From: Waddliaceae bacterium
Lineage (GTDB): Bacteria; Chlamydiota; Chlamydiia; Chlamydiales; SLFE01
Direction of reading: 5' to 3'
DNA length: 64,000 bases
Assembly (NCBI GenBank): GCA_963771045.1
Contig: CAVYRW010000004.1
Span: 1,184,001-1,248,000 of the forward strand
A program made the position numbers and the translations under genes. This document shows, piece after piece, positions 18,599-60,850 of this stretch. The notes under the pieces were generated by a model. That model saw only the letters and a list, made by a program, of their open reading frames with translations, was not told where the DNA came from and did not search any database. Positions within the stretch are counted from its first letter, which is position 1. Each line of letters begins with the position of its first letter.

Positions 18599-19264
18599 AT
18601 GAAAAAATGGAAGTTAAATTACACGACGGCATGGCCATATTTTAATAAGCATATAAAATCGGGAAATTCACTATCAAGATTTCTTATAGAAAAAATTGAT
18701 TTTAAAAAGGGACACTTTTTTACAATTCTTCCAGAAGATGCTCAAATTGAAAATATTGAGAATCTACGTTTCGGAGGAATTCTTCCACAACCTCCTATGA
18801 TGAAGTCCCCAGATAATAGAGGATATTGGCAATCAATACCGACAACTATCGAATCAATGGCAGATTTTATAAAAAATTTCTTGGAGCAAAATGACTTGCG
18901 TTATGGTTTGGTGGAAGACGTGTGTTATGGCCCAAATGATGAAGTAGTTTTAGAGTCAGAGGTCGAATATCTGCTTTATGATAAAGAGGTTTATTACTTT
19001 CTTCAAAAAAAAGTATCAACAGAAGAAATTGAACAAACTATCAGAATAGGGAATGCAAATTACCATCTACTCATTGTTTTGGGTGAAGGTGAAAGATTTA
19101 GAAATGAGGCCCTTCAATTTAGTGATTTTGAGCAAATTGCACAAGAAGCAGTATACATAGTTGGAAGTGCTTATGATAGTGAATCATATATAGTTTGGAA
19201 AAACGATGACAAGCTCGATCCTAATATGGAGAATTTCTTTAAGGAGAAGGATTATCAAAAGTGA
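18599..19264 (+). CDS. Putative immunity protein 1
   Basis: Starts 4 nt after the Rhs stop; AT-rich; family motifs GHFFTILP, GGILP, GSAYDSESYIVW. Confidence 0.8.
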   Translation: MKKWKLNYTTAWPYFNKHIKSGNSLSRFLIEKIDFKKGHFFTILPEDAQIENIENLRFGGILPQPPMMKSPDNRGYWQSIPTTIESMADFIKNFLEQNDLRYGLVEDVCYGPNDEVVLESEVEYLLYDKEVYYFLQKKVSTEEIEQTIRIGNANYHLLIVLGEGERFRNEALQFSDFEQIAQEAVYIVGSAYDSESYIVWKNDDKLDPNMENFFKEKDYQK

Positions 19265-19341
19265 AAATCAAATATATTTACGGGCCTATCACAGGACCAC
19301 ATTGGGATTATTATGATCCTCTCTGAGATGCTAAATTATAT

Positions 19342-19769
19342 AATGCGTTTTCCTGATTGCCATACCTATAAGCGAAATCATTTTAGGGACAGCAACAGCG
19401 GAAGCGATCATTGGTGCAGTAGTGGGCGCCTTTTGCGCTTATTTCGCTTATGAGAATGTTCATTACGTAGAAGATTGGATGAACAATTGCAGCCGGGATG
19501 GGTCACCTTATATCTGGGATGATTTTGGTTGGAATCCCGAGGGACCCGCTGATTATGGATTTGAATGGAAAGGTAGGGGTCCTCCATCTAGTGGTAAAGG
19601 GAACTGGGTTAAAGGAGATGAAAAGTTAAATCCCGATTTTGATCATGCTCCGCCAATAGGTCCTCATTGGGACTATGTTCCAGAAGAAAATCATGATGGT
19701 TATCGCTTGCATCCGGATGGAAGATGCGAGCCAAAAAATAAAGGAAAAAGGAAAAAGGAAAAAAGGTAA
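19342..19769 (+). pseudogene. Orphan Rhs C-terminal toxin module
   Basis: Repeat of ~18170-18594, offset ~1172 bp, starting right after the DPDG position; no Rhs body. Confidence 0.85.
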
Positions 19770-19777
19770 GTAGGTTC

Positions 19778-20443
19778 ATGAAAAAATGGAAGTTAAACTA
19801 TACGACGGTATGGCCATATTTTAAAGATCACATAGAATGGGGAAATTCACTATCAAGATTTCTTATAGAAAAAATTGATTTTAAAAAGGGACACTTTTTT
19901 ACAATACTTCCAGAAGATGCTCAAATTGAAAATATTGAGGATCTACGTTCTGGAGGAATTCTTCCACAACCTCCTATGATGAAGTCCCCAGATAATAAAG
20001 GATATTGGCAATTGATACCTTCAACTGTTGACTCGATGACAGAATTCATAAAAAAATTTTTAGAACAAAATAACTGTCGTTATGGTTTGGCAGAGGATGT
20101 GTGTTACGGTCCAAATGATAAATTAGTCATAGAGTCAACTGTAGAATATCTACTTTATGATAAAGAGGTTTATTACTTTCTTCAAAAAAAATTATCAAAA
20201 GAAGAAATTAGAAAAACTATCAGAAGAGCTAATGCAACTTACCATTTACTCATTGTTTTGTGCGAAGGCGAAAAATTTAATAATAAAGGTCTTCAATTTA
20301 GCAATTTTGAACAGATTGCACGAGATGCCATATACATAATTGGTAGTGCTTACGACCGGGAATCATATATAGTTTGGAAAAACGATGACAAACTCGATCC
20401 AAATATGGAGAATTTCTTTCAGGAAACGGGACATCAAAAGTGA
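19778..20443 (+). CDS. Putative immunity protein 2
   Basis: Close paralogue of 18599-19264, downstream of the orphan toxin. Confidence 0.8.
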   Translation: MKKWKLNYTTVWPYFKDHIEWGNSLSRFLIEKIDFKKGHFFTILPEDAQIENIEDLRSGGILPQPPMMKSPDNKGYWQLIPSTVDSMTEFIKKFLEQNNCRYGLAEDVCYGPNDKLVIESTVEYLLYDKEVYYFLQKKLSKEEIRKTIRRANATYHLLIVLCEGEKFNNKGLQFSNFEQIARDAIYIIGSAYDRESYIVWKNDDKLDPNMENFFQETGHQK

Positions 20444-20537
20444 AAATCAAATATATTTACGGGCCTATCACAGGACCACATTGGGACTTTTTTGGTCCTC
20501 TCTAAGATGCTAAATTATATTCAGGAGGTGTTTGGAT

Positions 20538-21038
20538 ATGGAATTAAAAATAAATAAACATAAGCTAGATCCAAAGAAAACTATACCTTTTTTTGTAGAT
20601 AATATTCGTTGTGGAAATGCTTTATCCGAAGAAGTTATTAAAGCCATTGATTTTGAGAAAGGGGAATTTTTTACATTTCTGCCCAGTAACGCAGAAATAG
20701 ATCGAATCTATAATTTTAAATGGGGAGGAATATTCCCAAACGCATTTCAAAGCTTAGAAAGCTGTTCAGGAATCAAAGATCAACCTCGCATTGAGCGGAA
20801 AACTGGTATATCAGATCAGTTCCATGTTGATTTTATTAAAAATTATTTAATCGAAAGTAGAAAAAGGCTTATGATTATTGATAGTTTTAATGAACAGCCT
20901 GATGATCCTCATCTAGGAATAGAAAATGTAAATATGTTTTCATATAAAAATGAAATTTATTATGCTTTGGACAACAAAAATGGTAGAGAAGAAATCGATG
21001 AGGCACTTTGTGTAGCAGATCTCATTTGGCATTCTTAA
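20538..21038 (+). pseudogene. Putative immunity protein 3, truncated by the IS91-like element
   Basis: AGGAGG RBS; GEFFTFLP and GGIFP motifs; stops at IWHS where paralogue 60010-60642 continues. Confidence 0.75.
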
Positions 21039-22643
21039 GTTATTTATCGACCTCGCAAACCTGAAAAAACGGTTCTTTTTAACGTCATAAAAAGACACTA
21101 CAAGACATGGTACAAAAACTCTGAAAATCCCATTCCCAAATATGTAGACAAGGAGTTCCATAAGTATCTGGAATGCGGCATATTAGCTAATGGATTCGCG
21201 TGTGCTCATTGTTCTGACTGCAACAAAGACATATTCATCGCTTTTTCCTGTAAAGGCCGGGGAATCTGCCCCTCCTGCAACACACGAACAATGGTTGAAA
21301 CAGCTGCGCACCTCGTTGAAAATGTCATTCCGCCCATTCCCATCAGACAATTTGTGATCAGTTTTCCTATGCGGATTAGGCATTACCTTCAAACGTACAA
21401 AATCCTCCAAACCGTTTTAAATATTGTCGTCGATGAAATTCGAAAGAGGCTTATCATATGCAGTCCGGATATCATAGATCCTTAAAATCGGTGTCATTAG
21501 CTTCATCCAGTATTTTGGAAAGACACTAAATTTCCATCCTCATTTCCATCTTATTGTGGCTGATGGCCTCTTTAGCAAAGATGGCAGCGACCTTTTATTT
21601 CACGAGGCCTCATTGACTCCTGATGATATTGCGGACACCCAAGATTGCATAAGTAAAAGAGTGCTCAGGTATTTTGGGAGAAAGGGCTGGTTTGATAAGC
21701 AGACGATAAAAAGGATGCTCTCTAATGAAAACAGCGGATTTTCTCTCGATGCTAAAGTAAGAGTCCCCTCTTGGGATCGAAAAGGCTTAGAGCGTTTGAT
21801 AAGATACTGCGGCCGCCCTAGCTTTGCCAGCGAGAACTTGCGATGGAATGGTCCTTGGGTTCATTATCGCCTTCCTAAACTTAACTCACACCGGCAAAAC
21901 CTTTGTCCAAATTGAGCCTTTGGAATTTATCGAGAGGATTTCCCGGTTCATCCCCTATCCCCGCCGACACCTTCGTCATTATCACGGAGTTTTTGCTCCT
22001 AATTCTCCTTTAAGGAAGAAGGTGGCTGCCAGCGCTCAAAAACGCCCTGTATCCAGCATCCAAAAAAATTTACAAGAGTCTTCGAAAAAAGTTATAAAGG
22101 TTTCTTTCGACTGGGCAAAGCTCATAGCACGTATTTACAAAACCGATCCGTTGCTTTGTGAATGTGGTAATAAAATTAAAATTACCTCATTTGTCATCCA
22201 TACAGTTGAAATCAGACGCATATTAAACCGCTTAGGCTGCAGGGCCGAGATCCCGAAGTTCGACCAGCCCTACCCTCCTCCTGAATTGAATATCTGCCAA
22301 CTTCTGCCGTGGACTGAGGATGGATTTTCCCCGTTAGAAGATCGCACTCTAGGAGAATGGGGCCTTAGGTCCCCCCACTCATAGATCCATCCAATTGGGC
22401 AGACAATATCGACCCCCCTTTTTGGGAAGATTGAACCATATACGATGATCGCTTCAGAAGGGGCCGATACCTTTTGCTCTCATTTCTCCCAAAATCATGT
22501 CATATCTCTAACAAATCAGGAAAAAAACACGAATTTGAAGAAAATTGTCTGATTATTGTTCAAAAATAAAGAAATCAAAGCCCACCTTTCTGACAATCCG
22601 ATCTAGGATAAGGCCGTAGACATGCTTGATCTTCCTATACATT
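21037..22643 (+). mobile_element. IS91/ISCR-like element (longest copy, slightly 5'-truncated)
   Basis: Near-identical to 11251-11758 and 3795-5230; same two +1 frameshifts; same TTCCTATACATT end. Confidence 0.88.
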
Positions 22644-22801
22644 AGGATTGGCGGCTATCAAGAAATTTTAATCAAAAAGCCCTGGTGTCTTGACCCTATT
22701 ATTTTGTGACACTATTCTTACCGCTGCACTCACTTGATTTTTAGAATCGAGTAATATCTTACGTTCATCAACAGTGTAATGCTTCTTTAAAACTTCTAAG
22801 C

Positions 22802-23560
22802 TCACGAATAAACCTCCATGAGCTTAACACTTTTAAATCCGATTTTCTCATATAGAAACTTGGCATCGTTTGTTGCAGTTAGAACGCAAATATCACTTCC
22901 TTCATTTTTGGCTTTTTTCATAGCACTCAGTGTGCCCGCTTTTCCAAGTCCCCGTCCACGCATATGTGGATCGACAATCACGCCAAAAATAGAAGCAATG
23001 TCAGAAGAAATAAAAACTGAACTGGTAGCAACAGGTTTGTGGTCAACATACCCGACAAGCAAATGGAGATCGGAATTAAACATTAAATCTTTTGCTAACT
23101 GATAATACTTATTGACAGCTTCCTTTTCTTCTTCAGGGAGAATCGAAAACATCACTCTCATAAAATCACTGAGTTGTTCACTTGTCCGAACTTCCTGAAA
23201 ATAGTAGCTTTCACTTTGCAAAGGCCATTCAATATTATTCAGATTTACCTTCATGACCAACTCTTCTTCAGCGGGCTTTAGTCCGTGATTTTTGAGTTCG
23301 CCGGCCAGCCAGACAGGATCGCTGTCAAAACCTACCCACCAACAAAAAGGAAGTTCTTTTTGCCGGAAGTAATCGATGGAATTTTGAACCGAATCTTCCT
23401 CTTCTTGTCCAGTTGAACATATGATATTGAACATATCGGATTCTAGACCACTGTCAATCAGCAATGTCTTATAATTTTTCGTTACCAGCATTCCGGGAAC
23501 TTTTTGCGGAATGTAGGAAAAGTATTCTTTTATGTGTTGATCAATCATTATTTTGCTCAT
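22802..23560 (-). CDS. GNAT-family acetyltransferase
   Basis: VIVDPHMRGRGLG and LYEKIGF motifs. Confidence 0.85.
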   Translation of the reverse strand: MSKIMIDQHIKEYFSYIPQKVPGMLVTKNYKTLLIDSGLESDMFNIICSTGQEEEDSVQNSIDYFRQKELPFCWWVGFDSDPVWLAGELKNHGLKPAEEELVMKVNLNNIEWPLQSESYYFQEVRTSEQLSDFMRVMFSILPEEEKEAVNKYYQLAKDLMFNSDLHLLVGYVDHKPVATSSVFISSDIASIFGVIVDPHMRGRGLGKAGTLSAMKKAKNEGSDICVLTATNDAKFLYEKIGFKSVKLMEVYS

Positions 23561-24227
23561 TGATTATATTATGTCTCAATAAATTATTTAAAAGGTTATC
23601 CGCGCTGCTCGTAATATGGCTGTATAGCGCCTCTTTGGCCGACTCTATTTTTTTCTTCAGCGCAAAATTTGCGATTTCCCGGTGCTGTTTGTGATTCACT
23701 TTCATTAAAGGAGAATCGGCAAAATGAAAACTAAGTCTAACAAACCATTCATGCTTCAAAGCGCACAAATCACGGATTTTCAAAAGCTCCCTGATTGGAC
23801 AGGCGGCAACAAGCGCCGCATGAAATTCCCTGTTAACTGGTTCCCAAAGCGAGTATTCCACCATTTTTTGGGTTTCCAGTTTTTTAAGCTTGTGCAGCGC
23901 GGCAACAATTTGAGATTCCCACTGATCATTTCCATTCTCTATCGATTGCTGTAGGCAGAGGCATTCGATTTCAGCATAAGTCTTCATGGAGTCAATCAAC
24001 TCTAGAGAGCTCTTTTTTGCGACTGTATACCCCTTATTTTCCTCAAAATCGAGCAGCCCTTTTTCGGCAAGACTCGACAAAGCCTCCCTAATTGGGCTTA
24101 AAGCCGTATGCAGCAATTGCTTTAGGTCTTCATTCTTTAAATGAGTTCCGGGAAGAAGCTCTCCTTCCAAAATTGCCCTTTCCAGCCTATGCCGGCACTT
24201 CGTTGCTAATGTTATCTTCTCATTCAT
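23541..24227 (-). CDS. GntR-family (FCD) transcriptional regulator
   Basis: ILEGELLPG...SPIREALSSLAEKGL wHTH; NREFHAALV...H FCD motif. Confidence 0.9.
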   Translation of the reverse strand: MNEKITLATKCRHRLERAILEGELLPGTHLKNEDLKQLLHTALSPIREALSSLAEKGLLDFEENKGYTVAKKSSLELIDSMKTYAEIECLCLQQSIENGNDQWESQIVAALHKLKKLETQKMVEYSLWEPVNREFHAALVAACPIRELLKIRDLCALKHEWFVRLSFHFADSPLMKVNHKQHREIANFALKKKIESAKEALYSHITSSADNLLNNLLRHNIINEQNND

Positions 24228-24246
24228 ACTTTATATGATATCACAT

Positions 24247-24277
24247 ATATTCGAATATGTCAAGTATATTCGAATAT
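24247..24277. promoter_or_regulatory. Tandem palindromic operator ATATTCGAATAT x2
   Basis: Perfect 12-bp palindromes at 24247-24258 and 24266-24277, between the divergent gntR and hydrolase genes. Confidence 0.65.
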
Positions 24278-24343
24278 TTTTGACTTAGCAAAAGTGATGT
24301 TTAATTGTTTTTTTTCTAATTAATGATACAACTATAGGCAATT

Positions 24344-24783
24344 ATGTTTGAAACACACAAATTCAATACAAATCAACACAATCTCTATGTTGAGACTTTT
24401 GGCCAAACTTCATCACCTGCTTGTCTGCTCATCCCCGGCGCTATGCAAGGAACTTGGGGTTGGAGCGATCGTTTTTGCCAAAAAATCGCGGGCGCCGGTT
24501 TCTACGTGATTCGATTTGACCACCGTGACATTGGCCGATCATCACGCACTCCTGAGGGAAAGGAATGCTAATGAAAATCAAAGCTCCAACCCTCATCATT
24601 CATGGCGATCAAGATCCGATCGCCCTCCCGAGATTAGCCCTCTCAATGACTCAAAACATTCCCAATTCCCAAGTAAAACTTATCAAAGGAATGGGGCATA
24701 TGTTCCTGAGCCAAGACCTCGAAGACAAAATATCCCAATTCTTAATTGAGCACATGAAAAAATCCGGCTCATCTGATAAATGA
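24344..24783 (+). pseudogene. Alpha/beta hydrolase with the middle deleted
   Basis: N-part LLIPG...VIRFDHRDIGRS and C-part PTLIIHGDQDP...GMGH; nucleophile elbow missing. Confidence 0.8.
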
Positions 24784-24907
24784 CGTTAATGACTCTCAAA
24801 TTATTTTACACACTCAAAAATAATGACCTGCAAACCTGTCTATCTGAATTAGAAAAGCGTTTCAAAAGAGAAAAATACGAATCCTGCGAAATTGCTCTTT
24901 GCAGCTA

Positions 24908-25932
24908 CTAAATAATCAGCATGGCATCGCCGTAGGAATAGAAGCGGAATCGGTCTTTCACTGCTTTCCGGTAAGCTTCCTTAATGAGTTCGTATCCTCC
25001 GAATGCCGAGACAAGCATCAGAAGCGAGGAGCCGGGCAAGTGGAAGTTCGTGATTAGCGATTTGACAAACTTAAACTCATACGAGGGATATATAAATATA
25101 TCCGTCTCCCCTTCCCCGGGTAAATCTTCCCTCCCGATGCGCATGATTCCAAAGCCCTGCATGTCGTTGTTCCCACGCATATTTGACGTTTTGCAAAGTG
25201 ATTCAGATGCCGGGCGGTCTGCGAACTTATTTTATAGAATTCGCTGTGCATGCTATGGCTTCGAATATCATCTGTTTGCACCGGTTTGAAGGTTCCCAGG
25301 CCAACATGCAAGGTAAGAATTTGAAGATGGGCTCCCTTAGTTTTTAATCCGCTTAGAAGGTCTTGGGTGAAATGCAGCCCGGCTGTGGGAGCGGCTAAGG
25401 CTCCCTTTTCCTTGGCGTATACCGTCTGATAACGCAGCTCATCCTCTGCCTCAGGGTCCCTGTCCATATAATGAGGAAGAGGCAGTGTTCCATATTTTTG
25501 CAAAAGATTGCCAAAATCTTGGGTAGAATCAAATCGGACGATTTTGTGGCCATTTTCAAGAGTGGCTTCGATCTCGCAATGGAAACTGTCTCCAAAAACA
25601 ATGCGATGTCCCTTTTTCACCTTTCTTCCCGGTTTGCAAAGCACTTCCCATCTCGCTTGTTCAAGATTCTTCAGGAGAAAAATTTCGACAGCGGCTCCTG
25701 TTTCCTTGTTGCCGACGAGCCTGGCTTTGACCACCTTGGTATCATTAAAGATAAACTGATCTCCCTCTTCCGCCCATTCAAGAAGATCTCGAAAACGCAT
25801 CTCGGATAAATTGCCCGAAGCTCTGTCGACAATCATGAGCCTGGATTCATCCCTTTTTTTTAAAGGGAATTGGGCGATCAGCTCCTTGGGCAATTCATAT
25901 TGATAGGCGGATAAATTATATAAATGACTCAT
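24908..25932 (-). CDS. queA: S-adenosylmethionine:tRNA ribosyltransferase-isomerase (frameshift at a G-run, ~25114-25117)
   Basis: [24 protein letters not shown], then [17 protein letters not shown]...[10 protein letters not shown] in a second frame. Confidence 0.92.
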
Positions 25933-25970
25933 AAAAAAAAAGAACGCGAAGAGTATGAGCTCTTCGCGTT
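25933..25970 (-). terminator. Intrinsic terminator-like hairpin
   Basis: 11-bp stem AACGCGAAGAG/CTCTTCGCGTT followed by T9 on the minus strand. Confidence 0.7.
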
Positions 25971-25979
25971 TTTCAAGCT

Positions 25980-26888
25980 TTATCGGGAGTGGGTATAGTC
26001 GGACACTTTGATCCCAGCCACTTGCTCATTCCTGTGAGGACCGGTCATGATCTCGATGCTGGCATCGGGAAAGGTCTTGGCCAAAATTTTTGCCGCATTG
26101 TCTCCCTGATGAGCCATAACCTCGATATCATCGATCGAAATTTTAGGGAGATTTCTATAATGCAGGTCGTTTTTTCCGGTTACAAGATGAACAGGAAATG
26201 GGGTCACGATGCCTTCATAAACTCCTGTTTTACTCATTACCATGTGCCTGGTGCTTTCCAGAGAGCTCGCAACTCTGCGGTCGGAGTTTTCACTGCTGCA
26301 GCCATGATATCCCACTTCATCGGCACGGACATGCCAATAGGGGTTTTCCGAATACATGGACAGATGAAATACATGCGTCCTTTCAGCTATAGCGGCGGCA
26401 GCGAGTCCTTCTTCCGAAATGGGACGGTTGAACTTATTGGGCATCATTGACGAGAGGTAATCTTCAACTTCGACTTCATTGACGATGCTGATCGCTCCTC
26501 CTACATCATAGACAAAGATCCTGCCGCGATAATCTTTTCCGTCGATTGACACAACGATTTCATGATCATCCGGAATGATCGCTATCTGATAGATACCGGG
26601 AAATTCTTCTCCCCATTTTAAACCTTGAGACAGCGCCTGCACGCGATTCCCCTTGGGAGAAAATCTAGTCGCAATCCTTTTGTTTTTGTAGGGATCATAC
26701 AAATTATACGTTCCCTTAACCTCTATGTCGGCATGAGGGGCGTCGTGCATCACAAGCACTCTAATTGTAGGAGGCTGAATGTTTTCATCGGAGACAAAAA
26801 CGCTTTTGAGCTTATCCCATATGCCCGCTTGCAGCGGGACTGCAGAGGCCGAGCAGATTATGCAGGCGGCGAGGAATCTGAGAATCAT
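25980..26888 (-). CDS. SpoIID/LytB-domain protein with signal peptide
   Basis: YRGRI...IVNEVEVEDYLSS...AAAAIAERT. Confidence 0.8.
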   Translation of the reverse strand: MILRFLAACIICSASAVPLQAGIWDKLKSVFVSDENIQPPTIRVLVMHDAPHADIEVKGTYNLYDPYKNKRIATRFSPKGNRVQALSQGLKWGEEFPGIYQIAIIPDDHEIVVSIDGKDYRGRIFVYDVGGAISIVNEVEVEDYLSSMMPNKFNRPISEEGLAAAAIAERTHVFHLSMYSENPYWHVRADEVGYHGCSSENSDRRVASSLESTRHMVMSKTGVYEGIVTPFPVHLVTGKNDLHYRNLPKISIDDIEVMAHQGDNAAKILAKTFPDASIEIMTGPHRNEQVAGIKVSDYTHSR

Positions 26889-26899
26889 CTTATTTCTCC

Positions 26900-29245: not shown

Positions 29246-29360
29246 ATTGGTTACAATTTTAAAGCAGTTCTACAATAATTTAAAGTAAAAAATATTTATT
29301 CATCAGCATGGATTATATATTAAAAAATTTAAAACAAAAACTTATATTAATAATAGGAAA

Positions 29361-45342: not shown

Positions 45343-45343
45343 G

Positions 45344-45899: not shown

Positions 45900-46598
45900 T
45901 TATGACTTTGAATAAAGCGAAAAAGTCTGACATTTGATTCGGAAAATTTTCTTCAGCACTCCAGCATCAGTTTTGCTTAAAATAATGGAATATTTTGGTT
46001 GAATATAACTACTTTCTTTGCAACTTTTTGATTCGTCTTTAACCCGAGCAGAGAAGATAGAACTTTTTAAATTTATAGATTCAACAATTTCATCCAAAAT
46101 CCCCTTATCAACATTGTCTATATCGATCCATTTAATACGATTGTATGCATCTTTTTTGATATCCTTCTCAAATCTGTTAATTAATTCACCGTTTTTCTCT
46201 TTCTTGTATTTAAGAAATTCAGTTTTTTTCTTTGCAGCGCTAACAAACGGAGTCTTGTCAAGATCAGCTTCTTCTTTCTTTGGAAGGGAAATTTTTAATT
46301 GCGAGCGAGTTTTCTCTACACGGTAACCACTTTGAAGAAGATCTTGATTAATTTGATTTATGATCAAAGCAGGAACTTTTTTAGAATGCCAAACGGTTTC
46401 AAAATCATCTGCATCAGCACTACCCCAAACCTCAACAATCCTGGAACTCGCAATGGTTAATTTAAATTCCCATTCTTTGAGAGGATATGGTTGTCTCAGA
46501 ACCGAATCGATGATTTCTTTATATTTTTCATAGGTTTCTTGGTTGTTGTCGGTCCAGGAAATTGGCTTTAAGAAAGCTTTTGGCAACTGCACGTTCAT
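45900..46598 (-). CDS. Hypothetical lysine-rich protein
   Basis: 232-aa ORF with GGAGG RBS. Confidence 0.65.
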   Translation of the reverse strand: MNVQLPKAFLKPISWTDNNQETYEKYKEIIDSVLRQPYPLKEWEFKLTIASSRIVEVWGSADADDFETVWHSKKVPALIINQINQDLLQSGYRVEKTRSQLKISLPKKEEADLDKTPFVSAAKKKTEFLKYKKEKNGELINRFEKDIKKDAYNRIKWIDIDNVDKGILDEIVESINLKSSIFSARVKDESKSCKESSYIQPKYSIILSKTDAGVLKKIFRIKCQTFSLYSKS

Positions 46599-48896: not shown

Positions 48897-48928
48897 AAAC
48901 TACCTTCATTTTAAACATAATTAATGTG

Positions 48929-51963: not shown

Positions 51964-51975
51964 TTTGGGTTTGAA

Positions 51976-52377: not shown

Positions 52378-52472
52378 GCTAACGCATTATATGGCGACAA
52401 CTAATATAATTCAAGTCGCTCCTTAACCCCATAACTAATTCCAGGGGATTGCGTCGCGATTTCGTTCAGTTG

Positions 52473-53570
52473 CTCAATGATCTCTTTCGATTGTGGAGTT
52501 AATCCAGAGTATATACCGATCGTCCGCAGATTTTTGCAATTTAAGATCTCTCGTGGAATTGAGAGTTTTTTTGGTACTAAAAATCCTTAAATAAGATAAT
52601 TTTTTTAGTTGGCCAATTTCAGGTGGAAGGGATTTTAATTCACTATCAGAAACTGTGAGATGCACCAAATTATATAGTTTTCCAATTTCAGGGGGAAGTA
52701 CCTTCAACTTTCGATTTCTCTGAAACACAAGCTGGATTAATTTTTTATCATCAAACATCCCAATTTCAGGAGGCAGAAAATTAAGCTCAATTTTTTAACT
52801 TCCTCCAATTCGAGTATTTACATAACAATCTCCGGGATCAATGGTTTTCAAATATTGCCGCCATTGCTTTGCTTCTTCTGTCCTTTGATTAAGATCTTCA
52901 AGGTTTTTCGCCAGCTCGACGTTGACATTTTCTTCAAGTTGAACGTCAGCTCCTGTGACCTCGTTCCAAGGATGTAAGGTGAACATTAACCGACACAGTT
53001 GACAAAGCCCTAAATCTTGACATTTTTGAATATGAGAATTGATTTTTTCAACATTTTCGGCTGTGTAAGTTATGAATTCTTCATCATCTATGGTTGCAGT
53101 GAAAAGATTTCGAGGAACATCGTAGTCTTCGCAGATTCTTTGTAATTCATGAAAAAATCTTACTTTTAAACGATCACCAAAAAAACATCTAATGTATCGG
53201 ATTTGCTTTTACCAAAACTGCTTCTGAAAATTCCCAATATTTTGGATTTTATGCTTTTTTTAGGGGTAGTTTCTGCTTTCATTAAATCAACAACTCTTGA
53301 AAATATTTCAGGGAAATCGTTTTTCATTTTGCTATATGTGACAATAGACGGGTCTTGAACAATACGCCTCCAATCTCTATTCGCTGATCCAAGCATAGCA
53401 AGTGATTTAGGATCAAGATGTTGAGTAATATAAAGCTTAAGCTCATCGGGCAGTCGATCCACTGTCAACTCATCGGAGATCCGATGTTCTTGAGGCAGTG
53501 AAGCTTCCTTATCGGGTTCAATATTCATAACCGTCTCCTCTTTTACAGGCAATGTAAAAGCAAAAACCAT
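52473..53570 (-). pseudogene. F-box + LRR 5' part of the split gene
   Basis: F-box LPDELKLYITQHLDPKSLAMLGSANRDWRRIV; LRRs LKVLPPEIGKLYNL and LKSLPPEIGQLKKL; frameshifts mostly at A/T runs. Confidence 0.78.
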
Positions 53571-53817
53571 GCCAGATATTAAATTTTAGGAATGTTTAAG
53601 CATGAATGACGCGGCCGAGGGCATTGAGCGACGCTTCTTTGGTGGCCTCGCTCATTGTCAAAGTCGATCAGACAATGCCCCCCTTAAAACTTGAGAACGA
53701 ATCTCAAGCAAGATCCTGCTTAAGCTTGCCTACAGATCCTTGAGAAATCCCGGTTAAATTGTTGATCGATAATCTGAATCCAAGTACACTCCTGGTATTT
53801 TTCAACGGAGGTATGTT

Positions 53818-56800
53818 ATGCGGATGCTTTTACTTTTCTGCTGCCTGAGTTGGATTTCGCTTTTTGCCGAAGATAATTGCGAAGATTTCACTCCGTCATC
53901 ACCTTTTGAAATTTCCGACTTGACATGCAGCAAAGAATTTCTTGTTGGGGGATTTGTCAATCCTTTAAGCGGGCAGATCTGCATCAATAAAACCGATCTG
54001 GTTGCCAAAGGCGCTCAAGATATTGTCATTAACAGAACATATATACCCCCTTTTCTCCCGACAAAGCAGCGCAAAAATCCGGGCCTCGATAAGGCGCTCA
54101 GACATCAGCATCTTTTTCGCTGCTATCGGGGATTTGAAACGCTTCCTCATCTTTCATTGAGATTGAAATCAAACGGAAGGATACAAGTTGCTTCCCAGAA
54201 TGGTTCGATTTTAGATTTTAAAATGACAAAAAGCGGCGATTATGTTTTAGACAATCCCCCTTATGGAATCAGCAATTATGCCGCCGGCAGGTCAGGCGGA
54301 CAGTTTGATGTCAGAAACATCAAGATCAACCGATCAGCAAATGAGATCACCATCCATTTTCCCGATGGCTTCAGGCGAATCTATAACAAACAGAATACCC
54401 ATTCCTATACCTTAGGCAAAGAAATTTTACCGAGCGGCAAGGTCATCAAATATCATTATCAACATGGCGCTATCAGCCTGATTGAGAGCTTGGATCCCAA
54501 AGAAAAGCACATCTATGCCTCAGTCGAAGTCAAAGGGTCGAAGGAGAAAGGAAAGCAGGAATTTTTCGCGTCAAGCGGTGCTTTTGCGGCACATTCATAC
54601 GAAACAAGAATGCTTCAATCTGAATGGAAGGAAAATGAAAGTCATTTTAAACAAGGACTCCTATCCAAACCCTATTTAACGGCAGCAGAAGGCTCATTTT
54701 TCGACAAAGAAGAGTTTTCATATAGCGACGATTTTTTTCTAACTGAGTGCAAGAGCTCCCACCTCCCATTTAAAAGTTTGAGCAAGATCACAAAAACCCC
54801 GGATAACCAGTATCACACTCGCGTGAAAAATCTTATTTTTGACACGTTCGATAACGCATCTTTCATGGGAGTGGAAAACATTGAGTATAGTCCCCCCTTG
54901 CCGGGAAGGCTGAACGGAGAAACCCTGGTCGCTTATCAAGACGGCTCTAAAATTGTTTATCGCTACACCGATCAACTGCTTCTCGAATCGGTAAAATCAT
55001 TTCAACCGGATGGCACCCTTAAGAAAACAAAACTCTTTCGCTGGGATGAAAACAATCGATTGTCAGGGGTTCAGTTATTTGAAGGCGGCGATGAGCTGCT
55101 CTATGAAAAAACCTATGAATACGATGATTTTGGCAATCCGATTTTTGAAACCATAGCTGGAAATGTTTCTTACAGCATAAGAAGGGAATTCTCTCAGGAT
55201 GGGATGAACCTGCTCCTCAAAGAGCAAGAGGAAAGCGGAAAAGAGACTGTTTATACCTATCTTCCCGAGACCAACCTTCCGACATCAAAACTTACCTCTG
55301 AAAATGGCAACATTTTACAAAAAGAGTATTGGGAGTATGACTACTGCCATAATTTGATTCGCAACATTATTGATGAGGGAAAATCCCCTGCGGCTGAAAG
55401 GCGTATTACCTCATATACCCTTCGCCAGGAAGCCCCCTATCTCCATATGCCGGAATGGATTGAAAAAAAATACCTCGAAAGAGAATGCGAAGAAATCCTG
55501 AAAAAAACTCATTTGATCTACGACCAATATGGCAATGTTTCGCAAGAGGATGTATATGATTCTGATGGAAATTTCCGGTATTCAATTTTCAAGGAATACG
55601 ACAAGCGGGGAAATTTAATTTCCGAAACCAACGCGCTAGGACAAACAGCCTGCTATGAGTATGATCAAAATGGAAACCTCCTTTCAGAAACCTCTTTATC
55701 AGGAAAACTCAAAAAGGAATACACCTACGATCTTAGAGGGCGGCGTTTAACTGAAACACACACCGGATCCAATGGCGAACTGAAAACTTTTCTTTACAAA
55801 TATGACAATAACGATCAGCTGATTCAAAAGACCGTCAATGATTCAAAGATCACTCGCTATACTCTTGATCCCGTTGTTTTAAAACCAACCACCATCCAAT
55901 ATCATTCGGACGTAAAAATTTGCAGACAATACGATGCTTTAGGACGCGTAACAGCCAAAACAGATCCTGAAGGGCATACAACATATATCTCCCGAAACCT
56001 CTACGGATCTCCACTGAAAATCGTTCATCCCGACGGAACAAAGGAGAAGTATTCATACTCAAAAGAAGGACATCTTTTAGAGTATATCGACCAAGAAGGC
56101 AACAAAACCGCCTATATCCGAGATATACTTGGCAGAGTTTTTAAAAAGACATTTTTTACCCAAGCAGGTGAAGAAATCGGCTCGGAATCTTTTGTCTACA
56201 ATTCCTTTCACCTCCTGAAAGAAACCGATTTAGAGGGGCATACCACCTCCTTTCACTACGACGGAGCCGGTAGAAAAATCAGAGAGGAAAGAGAAGGGAG
56301 GATTACTGAATACTCCTACGACTCTCTGGGAAGATTGGCAACTGTTAAGAAGCATACACTTCTTCACCACTACGAATACGACCTTCTCGATCGTGTAATT
56401 CGAGAGACAAAAACCGATTTAGATGGAAAAGTGCCTTACCAGGTCGGCTATGAATATGACGAAGACGGCAGCCGCTTAGCAGTCACCCGAAACCACGCCG
56501 CCGAAAAATTTTCATACGATGCTTTTGGCCGGATCGCAGCCCACAAAGATTATGAAGAGAGTACCATCGCTTATACCTATGATGATTGGTACGAAAATTC
56601 CTTTTTGAGAAAGACAGCTGTCGACCCCTCAGGCAAAACAACAGTTTCTGTTTATGATCCCTTTGAAAGGTTAACATCCGAGCAAATGTTTGATAAGCAT
56701 GGAACAACGCTTCACTTTAAAGAAATGGAATACGACCTTCGAGGCAACCTGATCAAAATCAGCGATGATGTTTATCAAAACGGCCATTATCAAAGAACGC

Positions 56801-58239
56801 AAACCCTGACTTATGCCTATGACTCAATGAATCGCCTCCAGTCGGAAACTCATGGCTTCGAAAGATCGATCCGCTATACCTATCATCCATCCGGCCGTTT
56901 AGCTTCAAAAACATTGCCAAACGGAAAAGTTCTCAACTATACCTATAATCCCTTAGGGTATTTAGAATCCGTCAATTCTTCCGACGGTTCAATCAATTTC
57001 CATTTCAGAACAAACAAACTTGGCGATATCATCGAAGCCGTCGATATCAATCAAGCTTACTCCATAACACGGGAACTCGATCCCTTCGGCAATATTTTAA
57101 GCGAGAAGACATCGGATGGCCTTGTCCTAGACAAGAAATACGACTGTTTCAACCGCCCTCTTGAGCTCGAATTTTCAGAAGGTTCTATAAAATATGAATA
57201 TGACCCCCTCTATCTTCGAAGCGTTTCAAGATTCAATAGCCAAAAAGAACAGCTTTATACACACACCTATGACCGCTATGATCAATCGGGCCGCCTGCTT
57301 GACGAATCGCTCATAGGCGAACTTGGCCAAGTGAATTTCCAATATAACAAAAACGGGCAAAAAACGGCCGCAGCTTGCGCCTATTTCGCTCAAACTTGTA
57401 CATACAACGAGATGAGAAACCTCATCGAATCAACAAGAGATCAAGCAACCCAATCTTATTCTTATGACGCCCTTTCTCAGCTAACTTCTGAAAATGACGA
57501 GGCATATGCTTATGATTCCCTCTTAAATCGAACCCAAAAAAATGGCGAGGCATTACAGTACAATCAGCTTAACGAACTCCTTTCCAAAGGAGAGCAAACA
57601 TACAAATACGATCAGTGCGGCAATCTGACTCATGACGGTAAAATGACCTACACCTATGATCTGCTCAATCGTTTGATCGAGGCAAAGGACTGCAGGCATA
57701 AAATCACCTATGCTTACGATCCATTTGATCGAAGAATATCCAAGAAAGTGTCTTTATACAGCGCACACGAAGAGCGCGCCCTGAGTCAAGAGATCTACTT
57801 CTATGACGGGCAAAATGAACTTGGCGCCTACACACCCGGCCATCAACTCAAGCAATTAAAAGTACCCGGAATACGGGCCTGCAAAGAATCCTGCCATCCC
57901 ATTGCTATCGAACTCCAAGACAAAGTCTTCGCCCCTATCCTTGATTGCCACGAAAATATTCAAAAGCTTGTGGATATTGAATCAAAACAAATTTCGCATG
58001 AATACGACTATTCAGCATTCGGAGATAACCTCAAAACCACCGAATCCCTGTACAATCCCTGGAGATACGCAGGAAAGCGACTGGATCCCGAAACAGGCCT
58101 GATCTACTTCGGCAAGCGCTTCTATAGCCCAGCCATTGGCCGCTGGCTGACAACCGATCCGGCCGGGACCCGCGATTCTACAAATCTCTACCAGTATCTT
58201 TTCAACAACCCCTTCCAATACTGTGATCCCGATGGGTAA
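53818..58239 (+). CDS. rhs: Rhs/YD-repeat protein, paralogue of 13765-18594, ending in TAA right after DPDG
   Basis: Collinear and highly similar to Rhs1, including the signal peptide and ~60 bp upstream. Confidence 0.92.
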   Translation: MRMLLLFCCLSWISLFAEDNCEDFTPSSPFEISDLTCSKEFLVGGFVNPLSGQICINKTDLVAKGAQDIVINRTYIPPFLPTKQRKNPGLDKALRHQHLFRCYRGFETLPHLSLRLKSNGRIQVASQNGSILDFKMTKSGDYVLDNPPYGISNYAAGRSGGQFDVRNIKINRSANEITIHFPDGFRRIYNKQNTHSYTLGKEILPSGKVIKYHYQHGAISLIESLDPKEKHIYASVEVKGSKEKGKQEFFASSGAFAAHSYETRMLQSEWKENESHFKQGLLSKPYLTAAEGSFFDKEEFSYSDDFFLTECKSSHLPFKSLSKITKTPDNQYHTRVKNLIFDTFDNASFMGVENIEYSPPLPGRLNGETLVAYQDGSKIVYRYTDQLLLESVKSFQPDGTLKKTKLFRWDENNRLSGVQLFEGGDELLYEKTYEYDDFGNPIFETIAGNVSYSIRREFSQDGMNLLLKEQEESGKETVYTYLPETNLPTSKLTSENGNILQKEYWEYDYCHNLIRNIIDEGKSPAAERRITSYTLRQEAPYLHMPEWIEKKYLERECEEILKKTHLIYDQYGNVSQEDVYDSDGNFRYSIFKEYDKRGNLISETNALGQTACYEYDQNGNLLSETSLSGKLKKEYTYDLRGRRLTETHTGSNGELKTFLYKYDNNDQLIQKTVNDSKITRYTLDPVVLKPTTIQYHSDVKICRQYDALGRVTAKTDPEGHTTYISRNLYGSPLKIVHPDGTKEKYSYSKEGHLLEYIDQEGNKTAYIRDILGRVFKKTFFTQAGEEIGSESFVYNSFHLLKETDLEGHTTSFHYDGAGRKIREEREGRITEYSYDSLGRLATVKKHTLLHHYEYDLLDRVIRETKTDLDGKVPYQVGYEYDEDGSRLAVTRNHAAEKFSYDAFGRIAAHKDYEESTIAYTYDDWYENSFLRKTAVDPSGKTTVSVYDPFERLTSEQMFDKHGTTLHFKEMEYDLRGNLIKISDDVYQNGHYQRTQTLTYAYDSMNRLQSETHGFERSIRYTYHPSGRLASKTLPNGKVLNYTYNPLGYLESVNSSDGSINFHFRTNKLGDIIEAVDINQAYSITRELDPFGNILSEKTSDGLVLDKKYDCFNRPLELEFSEGSIKYEYDPLYLRSVSRFNSQKEQLYTHTYDRYDQSGRLLDESLIGELGQVNFQYNKNGQKTAAACAYFAQTCTYNEMRNLIESTRDQATQSYSYDALSQLTSENDEAYAYDSLLNRTQKNGEALQYNQLNELLSKGEQTYKYDQCGNLTHDGKMTYTYDLLNRLIEAKDCRHKITYAYDPFDRRISKKVSLYSAHEERALSQEIYFYDGQNELGAYTPGHQLKQLKVPGIRACKESCHPIAIELQDKVFAPILDCHENIQKLVDIESKQISHEYDYSAFGDNLKTTESLYNPWRYAGKRLDPETGLIYFGKRFYSPAIGRWLTTDPAGTRDSTNLYQYLFNNPFQYCDPDG

Positions 58240-58656
58240 TGCGTCTTCCTGATTGCCATACCTATAGGCGAAATCATTTTAGGCACAGCAACAGCGCAAG
58301 CAATTATCGGAACGACTGTAGGCGCCGCTTGCGCATACTTTGCTTATGAGAATGCTCATTACGTAGAAGATTGGATGAATCAACACTATCGAGATAATCC
58401 AAGCCCTTATAGCTGGGACGATCTTGGATGGAATCCTGAATGCCCTAACCTTGATGGTTTTGAGTGGAAAGGTAGAGGCCCTCCATCGAGTGGTAAAGGG
58501 AGTTGGTTTAATGAAGAAACAGGAGAATCTTATCATCCCGATTTGGAACATGGTCCTCCAGATGGCCCTCATTGGGACTATTCACCGGATGATTCTCACG
58601 GAAAAAAACATAGAGGATATCGGATAAAACCGGATGGCAGTTGTGAACCTAAATAA
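58240..58656 (+). other. In-frame C-terminal toxin tip (GPHWDY family), uncoupled by the TAA
   Basis: CVFLIAIPIGEIILG...GFEWKGRGPPSSGKGSWFNEETGESYHPDLEHGPPDGPHWDY in the Rhs frame. Confidence 0.85.
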
Positions 58657-58673
58657 CTTGTAAAGTCGTATAT

Positions 58674-59300
58674 ATGAAGATGAAAAAGTACAACTTAAAT
58701 TACAATAAAGTTATCAATTATTTTCTCGATCATATTGATTGGGGAAACAGTTTATCAGCTTATTTTCTTAAAAAAATGAATTTTTCTAGTGGTAATTTTT
58801 TCACAATATTACCTGATAACGCCAAGTTTGAACAAATTGAAGATTTAAAAAATGGGGGGATACTACCACCTGCTGGACCTTGTTTGCCAATTGATAATGG
58901 AAGCGGAACGTACCAAGCCGTTCCGAATACAAAAGAAGCTTTGGTTGATTTTGTTAAAGATTTTCTTAATCAGAATTCTTTTAATTATTGTATTGGAGAA
59001 GATGTTCTTCGCGGGCCTACAGACAAAATTGTTAAGCAGTCCGCTGAAAAATTTCTCCTTTATAACAATGAGATCTATTATTTACTAGATATGCAGAATT
59101 CTATCGATGAAATAGAGGATGTTATTTGGAAGTCTAATGCCTTGTATCATATGTTTTTTGTATTAACTAATGGTTCTCATAATTATACAGGATTTTTGAG
59201 ATATGAAGATTTTGATTTAATCTATAGCAATGTCAATTATATTATTGGTAGCGCATATGATGGTGAGTCCTATATTATTTGGGAAAAAACCAAAGAATGA
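58674..59300 (+). CDS. Putative immunity protein 4
   Basis: GNFFTILP, GGILP, GSAYDGESYIIW. Confidence 0.8.
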   Translation: MKMKKYNLNYNKVINYFLDHIDWGNSLSAYFLKKMNFSSGNFFTILPDNAKFEQIEDLKNGGILPPAGPCLPIDNGSGTYQAVPNTKEALVDFVKDFLNQNSFNYCIGEDVLRGPTDKIVKQSAEKFLLYNNEIYYLLDMQNSIDEIEDVIWKSNALYHMFFVLTNGSHNYTGFLRYEDFDLIYSNVNYIIGSAYDGESYIIWEKTKE

Positions 59301-59483
59301 ATTTTTTTTCATTTGATTATATTTGAAATTGCCTTGGAAGAATGACGGCGAAAGAGGGTTGTTCGGGAATAAGCAGCTTACAACAATCTTCAAAGAGAAG
59401 GAGGCCGGTCCCCTCATCTGGCCTTGCCCCGTTGTTAGGTCCAACATTAATTAGAGGTTCCGGTTAGTTTTGGCGCTTTCTCG

Positions 59484-60007
59484 CCAGTATCTTTTCAACA
59501 ACCCCTTCCAATACTGTGATCCCGATGGGCAATGCGTTTTCCTGATTGCTATACCGATAGGCGAAATCATTTTGGGCACAGCAACAGCGTGAAGCGATCA
59601 TTGGCGCTGTTGCTGCTGCGATTACAACTTATGCTGTTTATGAGGGAACTAATTATGTTGAAAATTGGGTGAATCAAAGCTGGGACGCAGCCTACGATGA
59701 TATATTTATGCAGGTTTGGAAAGACAATGTTAATGAAGATCTTGAAAAACGACGACGAGAAAAGGAAAGGGACTCCCGTTATAAAGATTTAAATGAGAAT
59801 CCTGAAAGCTATCCTGATGGATTTGAATGGAAGGGTAATGGGCCACCAGGTAGTGGCCGTGGTAATTGGCATAATCCTAATACAGGTGAAAGGTTGCATT
59901 GGGATTATAATCACGCTCCGCCGATTGGACCTCATTGAGATTATTTTGGTCCCGAAGGTAAGGCTAGAATTGACCCTAACGGAAATTGGGATTGGAGACC
60001 AAGTTAA
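59484..60007 (+). pseudogene. Orphan Rhs core-end plus toxin module
   Basis: Repeats QYLFNNPFQYCDPDGQ; extra T at 59590; GFEWKG...GPH*DY with TGA at 59936-59938. Confidence 0.82.
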
Positions 60008-60009
60008 CT

Positions 60010-60642
60010 ATGAAAATTATAAAACATAGGTTGGATTTTAATAAGACTTATCCTTTTTTCATCGATCATATCAAATGTGATAAAACGCTATCTCAGGAAG
60101 TTGTAAAGAGGATTGATTTTAAACAAGGTGACTTTTTTACAATTTTACCAAAGAATGCCGTGATAAGTCGACTCTATAAATTTTCTGAAGGTGGTATTAT
60201 CCCGCTTTTGGTTCTTGAAGGAGAAACGCGTTTCAACTTAAGTGGTGTTGCTTTTACTCCTAGAGAAATTAGGTCAACAGATGATGATCTCGTAGGTTTT
60301 ACTATAAAATATTTGAAAACAAATTCTAAAAGATTTCTTTTTGTTGATAGTTATAATGAAAGTCCTAATGATTCTCATATGGGTATAGAAAATACAAAAC
60401 CGCTCTTTTATAAAAGTGAAGTGCATTATGTTTTGGATCAGGACAATTCCGCGAATGAAATTAAAAACGCAATTTATAAATCAGACGTTATTTGGCACTC
60501 TCTTATTTTATTAGTAGAGAAGTTTGATGAATTTCCTAGTTATTTTGATGATGATATATTTTCTCAAATATGCTCAAAAATCAAATATGTAATTTTAGGT
60601 GCATACGATGGTGAATCCTACATTATTTGGCAAAAACGATGA
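60010..60642 (+). CDS. Putative immunity protein 5
   Basis: GDFFTILP, GGIIP, GAYDGESYIIW; most like immunity 3. Confidence 0.8.
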   Translation: MKIIKHRLDFNKTYPFFIDHIKCDKTLSQEVVKRIDFKQGDFFTILPKNAVISRLYKFSEGGIIPLLVLEGETRFNLSGVAFTPREIRSTDDDLVGFTIKYLKTNSKRFLFVDSYNESPNDSHMGIENTKPLFYKSEVHYVLDQDNSANEIKNAIYKSDVIWHSLILLVEKFDEFPSYFDDDIFSQICSKIKYVILGAYDGESYIIWQKR

Positions 60643-60741
60643 AAAGCTCGTTCTCAATATGGAGAAATTCTTTCATGAATAAAATAACCTTGATAAAAGT
60701 AAGTTAGATTCAACTTTCACCACTGAAGAAATTGTGCAAAT

Positions 60742-60850
60742 TTGAAGATTATTGGAGTCAAATATGACTTTGATAAATACTATTTAACCTTTGAAAAGAC
60801 ATTCGATGATTTTGATAATCATATAAAATGTGGAAATATGCTTTCAGCAG
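60742..60850 (+). pseudogene. N-terminal fragment of a sixth immunity paralogue
   Basis: YLTFEKTFDDFDNHIKCGNMLS aligns with LDFNKTYPFFIDHIKCDKTLS; cut off just before a transposase. Confidence 0.55.

Follow-up and report, generated by a model that had tools for sequence, protein, structure and literature searches.

A family of unnamed alpha+beta proteins of about 210 amino acids is encoded immediately downstream of Rhs toxin tips of an Ntox37-like type, and its members are very probably cognate immunity proteins that bind the tip within an Rhs orphan-cassette system. In the window, which here means the whole 64,000-nucleotide stretch of Waddliaceae DNA that was analysed, six paralogues of the family (I1 to I6) accompany two Rhs cores and a set of displaced tips and scraps. 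The preliminary description of this region had proposed a cognate immunity role; linkage in both directions, a co-fold with controls and searches that returned no non-immunity family now support it.

Organization of the window

All six paralogues were recovered at their original starts, on the forward strand, as four intact genes, one gene cut by an insertion element and one short fragment (Table 1). I1 to I5 match one another with E-values of 1e-21 or better in pairwise BLASTP, and I6, which is weak in pairwise comparison (1e-4 to 1e-2), was recovered with the family profile (6e-9 in a two-sequence search, 3e-4 genome-wide). The motifs claimed for the family are visible in the alignment. The proposed subtypes, I1, I2 and I4 versus I3 and I5, lie on opposite sides of a branch with a support of 99 in a tree of the five sequences, although identity between I4 and I1/I2 is just 45%. 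A toxin or scrap does precede every copy except I6: I1, I2 and I4 follow tips, I3 follows a scrap with the GPHWD motif, and the tip ahead of I5 is present with its HWD motif broken by a stop. Gaps between tip and partner are 2-17 bases, and I1 is likely the cognate immunity protein of T1. The reported truncation of I3 is due to the insertion element. In the nearest locus, L009 (Waddliaceae, 98% identical), the I3 counterpart is full length (about 212 aa) with the AYDxE motif at its end, and as far as the break the two differ by 3 nucleotides and no amino acids. The end of the element recurs at window position 11251 and in two other places; its remnants match Y2_Tnp below the cut-off (E 0.0013). 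Across five pairs of family members, dN/dS is 0.16-0.32, well below 1. Counted over the whole genome, the family has 14 genes or remnants spread over 7 loci; eight of the 14 are additional to the six described before.

Table 1. Rhs cores, toxin tips, family members and associated features, in window coordinates.
Feature	Position	Strand	Description
First Rhs protein	13765..18594	+	Full length, 1609 aa; YD/RHS repeats, DPDG, hydrophobic linker, tip T1
I1	18599-19264	+	Intact, 221 aa; 4 bases past T1 stop
Toxin scrap	19282..19326	+	GPHWD motif, 14 codons; ahead of T2
T2	19342..19769	+	Orphan cassette from DPDG junction; linker and Ntox37-like tip, without Rhs core
I2	19778-20443	+	Intact, 221 aa; 80% identity to I1, dN/dS 0.25 vs I1
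Second toxin scrap	20461..20505	+	GPHWD motif, 14 codons; ahead of I3
I3	20538-21038	+	Subtype B, 166 aa; cut by insertion element at codon 166
Insertion element	21037..22384	+	Repeated; transposase remnants; truncates I3
Second Rhs core	53818..58239	+	1473 aa, 88% identity to first; in-frame stop right after DPDG
T4	58240..58656	+	Linker and Ntox37-like tip, in frame with second Rhs core beyond its stop
I4	58674-59300	+	Intact, 208 aa; dN/dS 0.16 against L009
T5	59484..60007	+	Decayed orphan cassette: Rhs-core end, frameshifted linker, Ntox37-like tip, stop inside HWD motif
I5	60010-60642	+	Intact, 210 aa, subtype B; 2 bases past T5 end
I6	60742-60900	+	5' fragment; 52-aa ORF, homology limited to residues 10-38 (about 29 residues)

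The first Rhs protein matches RHS_repeat (PF05593, 2.5e-54) and Rhs_assc_core (TIGR03696, 2e-24), as well as Ntox37 below its cut-off (E 0.0097). Its N-terminus is signal-peptide-like as judged by eye, and profile searches of the window proteins found no PAAR domain. DPDG occurs in both of the 88% identical cores, and their tips differ. T2 sits in a tandem duplication of about 1.17 kb (89% identity). Cassettes of tip and partner have been shuffled, differing in placement between sister genomes: T4-I4, on an Rhs core in the window, is an orphan cassette in L009. The orphan cassettes begin with the same few bases, and one idea is that the stop behind DPDG of the second Rhs was imported with such a cassette. 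Because none of the public contigs aligned to the region covers the stop with a matching piece, it may also stem from a point mutation or from faulty assembly. A promoter scan gave no usable signal.

Relationship of the tips to Ntox37

The GPHWD tip of the preliminary description stands as a type and can now be named: of 106 tips, 105 have PF15535 (Ntox37) as their top Pfam match, in most cases short of the cut-off. Tips in the window reach 16.9-24.1 bits against a curated cut-off of 27.8 bits, and one on the genome's own contig C3 reaches 26.5; relatives in G303 (29.5) and G858 (36.7) exceed it. Since the window tips fall below the cut-off while relatives pass, we call them Ntox37-like rather than plain Ntox37 and, to judge from sequence, they form a divergent branch. 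Zhang et al. (2012, PMC3482391) place Ntox37 among predicted metal-independent RNases, in chlamydiae and on RHS carriers, and describe it as all-beta with a conserved E, [KR] and Hx[DH]. The tip model, made for T4 (six strands and one 4-residue helix), and the alignment agree with an all-beta fold bearing E, R and HxD. Among the 106 tips, E51 is conserved in 99, H66 in 105, D68 in 103 and R83 in 101, the H and D counts being inflated because more than half of the tips were gathered via the pattern PIGPHWDY. Foldseek returned no match to the tip model under E 1, and no experimental paper on Ntox37 was found in the literature searched.

Linkage of toxin and partner

The expectation that homologues would lie downstream of GPHWDY toxins was borne out in both directions. 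An Ntox37-like tip is directly upstream in 54 of 76 homologue loci, a set in which two contigs are duplicates and some members are closely related to the window. The records with this arrangement carry the labels Chlamydiota, Bacteroidota, Bacillota, Pseudomonadota, Planctomycetota and Acidobacteriota, among others. Homologues unlinked to toxins, which the preliminary description had named as evidence against immunity, are nevertheless represented by the other 22, whose fetched DNA lacks a tip; judged by eye, some 14 of these lie among apparently unrelated genes. On a tree that excludes the duplicates L012 and L014 and matches covering <150 profile positions, the tipless homologues are scattered among the linked ones, as would be expected of orphan immunity genes.

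In the reverse direction, 300 Chlamydiota genomes yielded 30 toxin loci, and the family is directly downstream in 28 of these, a proportion biased upward by a toxin profile built from tips upstream of family members, and 29 of the 31 toxin-bearing Chlamydiota genomes belong to the 39 that carry the family. Outside Chlamydiota the reverse test is too thin, because the Ntox37 Pfam model matches 0 of 401 genomes in the phylum of G301 and 2 of 401 in that of G304. Only one locus, L195, is independent, and its downstream 209-aa ORF resembles the family profile only weakly (15.4 bits; E 3e-6 with five sequences searched). Metagenomes yielded the family at 33 of 80 toxin loci and an unrelated Cys/His protein of about 85 aa in the same slot at 37 of the 80, the motif of the latter occurring in none of the 33 loci with the family. 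Interchangeable antidotes would be expected to show this pattern; the family, earlier taken to be the immunity family for this toxin, is indeed linked to it, but the toxin has at least one further partner. Identities of toxin and partner correlate (Spearman 0.55 over 51 pairs; permutation maximum 0.25), a signal that was set aside as a mark of co-evolution because kinship and linkage account for it.

Predicted complex

Co-folding of a toxin and immunity pair, a check proposed earlier, gave T4-I4 a score of 0.80 (runs 0.89, 0.80 and 0.77), against 0.01 for the controls (best of 3) and 0.00 when an unrelated protein replaced the toxin. The mark applied had been calibrated, being reached by 116 of 157 solved pairs and 2 of 215 mismatched pairs. 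The runs have no less than 73% of their contacts in common, and the partner pLDDT is at least 86; I4 was modelled both alone and with T4. The prediction is unlikely to reproduce a solved structure, because PDB searches by sequence and fold returned no similar complex. The co-fold puts partner Asp196 (D196), the sole invariant column among 134 aligned members, onto toxin Arg83 (R83). The predicted interface also has the conserved G61 and W/H158-159 of the partner and, on the tip side, the conserved residues D56, H59, D68 and R83. In the model a variable hairpin of the partner (73-83) pairs with the last strands of the toxin; positions 68-84 are mostly gapped in 37 of the 134 rows of the broad alignment, and therefore the hairpin cannot be universal. 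The family has a median pI of 5.3. T4 is itself acidic overall (pI 5.0), so simple charge complementarity fails for some pairs.

Family size, name and fold

With 1,739 clusters at 50% identity, the family is large, and its distribution is patchy, 39 of 301 Chlamydiota genomes carrying it; the plasmids searched hold no family locus and viral contigs one. Tandem and fused forms exist (P0006, P0010 and P0056). The earlier statement that no named Imm family could be assigned holds, and no known non-immunity family was found either: of 134 members, at most 2 match any one Pfam family (with 25 of the 54 weak families listed), NCBIfam and PADLOC each match at most 1 of 134, and none of the three offers a family common to the members. 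PDB sequence searches gave nothing significant for the family. The ESM Atlas returned only unnamed, low-recognition matches for I4 and no usable match for P0019, and the source names of 10 clusters and 7 near homologues are 'hypothetical protein' or absent. The confident partner model reaches a best Foldseek E of 0.049 against the PDB and a best VIA Z of 4.3 (rmsd 3.7, 82 aligned); against the CdiI chains 5t86_I and 6d7y_B, Z is 3.3 and 3.0. These PDB fold searches gave no clear match to the partner or tip model, which does not in itself establish new folds. Imm32 (PF15566) was ruled out as the identity of the family on profile and size. At E<=1 its profile matches none of the six proteins of the window; a genome-wide Imm32 search gave no match, nor did its control.

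Proposed mechanism and alternative explanations

Going by Rhs biology and by Zhang et al. (2012), the Rhs protein is likely exported and cut at DPDG to release a beta-rich tip of about 85 aa, a predicted RNase that would be toxic. In the model the partner covers the conserved face of the tip, with D196 on R83; this would confer protection, and the variable hairpin would determine specificity. Copies likely accumulate through C-terminal displacement and duplication, with tip-plus-partner cassettes recombining within the shared linker behind DPDG. Displaced tips would decay, and partner genes would often be retained as a reserve against related toxins.

Linkage and the co-fold indicate association, not inhibition, and would also suit a partner that helps the tip to fold or to be exported, as a chaperone, adaptor or activator. 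We consider such a role very unlikely, because the partner occupies the position downstream of the tip that is the immunity slot of Rhs loci (Poole et al. 2011, PMC3150448), stays intact even where the tip ahead of it is dead or reduced to a scrap (I3 in L009, I5), gives way to an unrelated protein at 37 of 80 loci, and has a predicted interface that takes in the conserved tip residues D56, H59, D68 and R83. The tip might instead target a eukaryotic host, the partner being a metaeffector or self-protection during export, with no bearing on bacterial competition; the genome is chlamydial, and chlamydial toxins are seen as mostly host-directed by Zhang et al. (2012, PMC3482391). This too is highly improbable, since divergent and orphan copies kept in reserve would be of little use against a host. 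Moreover, the same pair occurs in records of Marinobacter, Cyclobacteriaceae, Clostridia and Pyrinomonadaceae, lineages that we take to be largely free-living. Binding of the tip by the partner is compatible with a host target.

That the family has a general role of its own, in stress or housekeeping, and merely hitch-hikes in Rhs cassettes in some lineages is scarcely credible. Chloroflexota and other groups do have stand-alone copies with unrelated genes around them, and those in L060 and L072 adjoin a presumably dnaX-like gene, so named from its sequence. Against this stand the patchy spread (39 of 301 Chlamydiota genomes), the orphans whose sisters on the tree are almost identical copies linked to a toxin (L070/L076, L055/L068 and L072/L063) and the co-fold score of 0.00 with an unrelated protein instead of the toxin.

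As a cognate antidote, the partner would make the toxin clonable, purifiable and solvable, so that the target and fold of Ntox37, a predicted RNase since 2012 (Zhang et al. 2012, PMC3482391), would become directly testable. A large unnamed family without a structural match also fills an annotation gap. Its presence in 39 of 301 Chlamydiota genomes, one with 14 copies or remnants, points to conflict among kin in some of the environmental chlamydiae; here an environmental chlamydia stocks many copies, though the group was once thought to carry few such antidotes. A broader and tentative proposal is that environmental chlamydiae may fight kin with a signal-peptide-exported Rhs-Ntox37 RNase, that a new-fold antidote reserve (14 copies or remnants) may cross-protect against rival tips, and that elsewhere the unrelated, unnamed Cys/His family may neutralise the same toxin. 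In that case, the reported scarcity of chlamydial immunity genes would partly reflect unrecognised families.

Comparison with known systems

Rehh, a divergent HNH DNase, is paired with Imm22, SUKH, CdiI-like and Imm24 proteins (bioRxiv 10.64898/2026.09.22.753552). As here, one toxin family has several unrelated partners, and conserved acidic residues lie on the conserved pocket of the toxin; the motif and the HNH DNase nature of Rehh differ, and the likeness is one of analogy alone. Colicin E3 and Ntox21 (CdiA-CT, Enterobacter cloacae, PDB 4ntq) share with our tips a small, beta-rich form and a DxxH motif, a motif likeness that we take as a lead only. The structural match of the tip model to 4ntq_A is limited to Z 3.5 (rmsd 3.9, 67 aligned, rank 18), which is within noise, the best Z overall being 4.4. 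The Tox-ColE3 motif reads 'R, Dxx+[HK], E, H' in Zhang et al. (2012, PMC3482391).

The same text, as available, describes homogeneous polyimmunity loci and polyimmunity proteins (Zhang et al. 2012, PMC3482391) that resemble the window in their tandem, co-oriented paralogues, in copy numbers varying between close strains and in fused or doubled forms. In the window, by contrast, the copies are interleaved with cognate toxin tips and scraps, and the family is absent from those named in that text as forming such loci. The text lists Imm32 (PF15566), in Bacteroidetes, as the partner of Ntox37. The window tips are likewise Ntox37-like, all-beta with E, R and HxD, but score below the Ntox37 cut-off, and the Pfam model of Imm32 has 54 positions, unlike the window family with about 210 aa.

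Rhs toxin/RhsI loci with orphan rhs-CT/rhsI modules, and an Rhs of Waddlia chondrophila whose neighbour is CdiI-like, have already been noted (Poole et al. 2011, PMC3150448). The window shares with Rhs/RhsI loci the Rhs core, the DPxG motif, the variable tip and the adjacent small gene, as well as downstream orphan modules that are core-fused in other strains. It differs in that the cassettes vary within one toxin and one partner family, that the partner is large (about 210 aa) and matches no library family, and that the N-terminus is signal-peptide-like, not PAAR. This type of system, with its Rhs tip, immunity gene and orphan cassettes, is well known; the immunity family is likely new.

Organization of the family in the window and source genome

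The six stretches that the preliminary description had attributed to an unnamed family of ~210-220 aa (I1 to I6) are present as described on checking the sequence. Four of these, I1, I2, I4 and I5, are intact at 208-221 aa; I3 ends at codon 166, where a repeated insertion element starts, and of I6 only a short 5' piece remains. The counterpart of I3 in the sister locus L009 shows three base differences and no residue differences up to the break, and continues past it as far as the AYDxE motif. The proposed division into two subtypes was recovered by a quick tree of 105 rows, which separates I1, I2 and I4 from I3 and I5 with a support of 99 among these five. I1 and I2 are 80% identical, I4 matches either at 45-46%, I3 and I5 share 46-47%, and identity across the two subtypes is 31-34%. 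Values of dN/dS for five pairs are 0.25, 0.32, 0.23, 0.31 and 0.16, which indicates conservation of the intact copies at the protein level. I5 remains complete though the toxin tip in front of it is dead, and I3 is intact in L009 though preceded by a scrap (a short GPHWD-motif toxin remnant), which suggests that such copies have value against incoming toxins.

Each of the two window loci opens with an Rhs gene. The first reads Rhs-T1 (intact), I1, scrap, orphan T2, I2, scrap and I3, where T denotes an Ntox37-like tip; the second consists of an Rhs core with a stop right after the DPDG motif of the core/tip junction, T4, I4, a decayed orphan T5, I5 and fragment I6. The DNA between the DPDG junction and the first scrap is duplicated in tandem (~1.17 kb, 89% identity). 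The source genome (2.57 Mb, 5 contigs) holds 14 family genes or remnants at seven loci, together with seven tips, of which three belong to full-length Rhs frames. The closest outside locus is L009, titled as a Waddliaceae MAG and 98% identical to I4. Its gene order differs, with T4-I4 as an orphan cassette and one Rhs gene followed by six family genes. L009 also has a chimeric tip, T1-like only past the HWD motif; the gene behind it is 99% identical to I1. Since its crossover and both window scraps centre on HWD, this motif may be a recombination hot spot. Further features of these and other loci are listed in the table.

Features noted in the window, the source genome and outside loci
Feature	Location	Strand	Remarks
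ORF of 1496 aa	window 5299-9789	+	low-GC stretch (33-40%); no family match above noise
Leucine-rich-repeat-like and F-box-like fragments	window 52474-53570; 45900-46598	-	upstream of second Rhs; F-box E 0.1 only; also a weak Ceg14-family match, E 1e-4, far below cut-off
63-bp stretch, possibly a small repeat element	window 59419-59481		between I4 and T5 cassette; 97% to contig C4:857100-857162
Short divergent paralogues	source genome C4:12673-13227; C3:42121-42699		185 and 190 aa; first behind tip, then normal-length copy; C-terminal motif altered
Second, more distant Rhs family	source genome C3:1-14600 (L007); C4:2036178-2042405 (L006)		different tips and small genes behind them, in an array of its own
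Chimeric tip	L009:4536-4817		resembles the contig C3 tip in its front half and T1 in its back half
Tip-free family copies	L060:5046-6323; L072:5084-5668		two chlamydia-like contigs; adjoining gene in each presumably dnaX-like from its sequence
~85-aa Cys/His family	L110	-	behind tip
~85-aa Cys/His family	L142:2729-3058; L168:1370-1648		
~85-aa Cys/His family	~35 more metagenome loci		
Two ~150-aa proteins	L148:2631-3161, L166:441-926; L124:742-1200		behind tip in a few loci; no Pfam match

Conservation and fold of the family

When a profile built from the six window sequences was run against 1.84 billion representatives, 1,739 clusters matched at E<=0.001 and 847 still did so at E<=1e-10. In an alignment of 134 of the best 150 matches, with fragments and fusions omitted, D196 (numbered from I4) is invariant, and conservation reaches 90% or more at L8, G40, F42, L46, P47, G61, W158, A194, Y195, E198 and W203. 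No single Pfam family matches more than two of these 134 members, and no single NCBIfam or PADLOC family more than one. The AlphaFold2 model of I4 is a confident one (pLDDT 95.8, pTM 0.91) of alpha+beta type and has no clear match among PDB folds, the best hits reaching E 0.049 in Foldseek and Z 4.3 in VIA. Within a set of fused and doubled forms (P0056, P0010, P0006; L052, L055, L065, L070), the family is joined to two further domains without a name, of which one begins FHDG-like and the other has a WGD motif, and occurs once as a tandem double. Judged by eye, the same two domains are also separate genes in chlamydial Rhs arrays. These forms look like polyimmunity proteins.

Linkage to Ntox37-like tips

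The expectation that homologues lie downstream of toxin tips was borne out in 54 of 76 loci, where no more than 250 bases separate the end of a tip from a family gene; the loci derive from the best 80 of 127 confirmed genome hits, and among them are two duplicated contigs and two loci of near kin. The other 22 have no tip in the DNA retrieved around them. By eye, about eight of these belong to arrays of Rhs or immunity-like genes, for instance adjoining a SUKH gene, and the rest are surrounded by unrelated genes; in the tree, orphan copies are interspersed among tip-linked ones. In the reverse direction, a tip occurs in 31 of 300 scored Chlamydiota genomes. The family lies directly downstream (once as a decayed piece) in 28 of the best loci taken from 30 of these, a count that leans high because linked tips were the source of the toxin profile. 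The family itself is found in 39 of 301 Chlamydiota genomes, 29 of which also carry the tip, and in none of 30 genomes of the Chlamydiota family f4 (those listed being 1.0-1.2 Mb). Five family-bearing loci (L025, L044, L081, L082 and L084) are titled Chlamydia trachomatis MAGs, against 0/30 in f4, and are probably mislabelled environmental chlamydiae.

Ntox37 (PF15535) is the top Pfam match for 105 of 106 tips; the window tips score below its cut-off and two relatives above. The beta-rich tip model (pLDDT 90.9) has no clear match in the PDB, 4ntq_A at Z 3.5 being a lead only.

A metagenome scan with the motif PIGPHWDY shows that the tip has other partners. In the best 80 of 246 loci, the gene behind the tip encodes the family in 33, an unrelated protein of ~85 aa in 37 and another protein in eight (two with a weak score against the family profile), and two leave no room; counted per unique tip, the figures are 31, 28, 5 and 2 of 66. 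The family described earlier as the cognate partner is therefore linked to the tip as one of at least two partners, not the sole one. The ~85-aa proteins share the motif DWRxxxQ...H[DE]HCxxC...WICxxC, whose H[DE]HCxxC part is absent from all 33 family-bearing loci, and the three checked have no Pfam match above cut-off. They are probably zinc-binding and likely a second immunity family of Ntox37-like tips.

Predicted complex and function

T4, taken as residues 8-93 of the 58375 ORF and given no alignment, was co-folded with I4, which had a 134-row alignment; the score is 0.80 against 0.01 for the best control. Of 157 solved pairs, 116 attain the mark for such scores, as do 2 of 215 mismatched ones; with the alignment used, these counts hold only roughly. 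Contacts agree between runs by at least 73%, with a partner pLDDT of at least 86. In the predicted interface, residues 81-86 of the tip are paired with 78-83 of the partner. Partner stretches 60-62, 111-120 and 156-159 also take part, as do D56, H59 and D68 of the tip; tip H66 is not among the residues named. The model places R83 on D196, a detail that we consider somewhat better than even. Conservation is 0.93 at G61, 0.91 at position 158, 0.90 at 159 and 1.0 at D196, and many other interface positions are variable; with few positions conserved and many variable, the predicted interface is consistent with a fixed anchor combined with a surface that sets specificity. The L009 chimera agrees with this interface, and linkage explains it equally well. 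The co-fold supports, as a prediction, binding of the tip by the family protein.

Gene order, two-way linkage, cassette exchange, purifying selection and replacement by an unrelated protein are observed, and the family is very probably the immunity protein of the Ntox37-like tip. The Rhs protein would be exported via a signal peptide and cleaved at DPDG, the tip would be toxic as an RNase, and family proteins would protect and cross-protect, the modelled 1:1 complex having the partner cover conserved tip residues. That the protein is instead a chaperone or adaptor of the tip is improbable, and equally so that the tip is a host-directed effector with the family protein as its regulator; a general function unrelated to the tip is less probable still.

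Relation to known systems

The family is real, unnamed and widespread, and likely has an immunity role. A literature search on Ntox37/PF15535 and chlamydial Rhs, with most subscription journals outside its reach, found no description of it, and the accessible part of 10.1101/2025.05.08.652813 contains no mention of Ntox or HWD. The Rehh preprint (10.64898/2026.09.22.753552) concerns a different toxin and offers an analogy only. In Zhang et al. 2012 (PMC3482391), Ntox37 is a predicted metal-independent RNase whose partner, in Bacteroidetes, is Imm32; the window family has no match to Imm32. The change of order between the window and L009 is the cassette shuffling that Poole et al. 2011 (PMC3150448) describe in Rhs loci. 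The toxin, its activity predicted only, and the type of system are already known.
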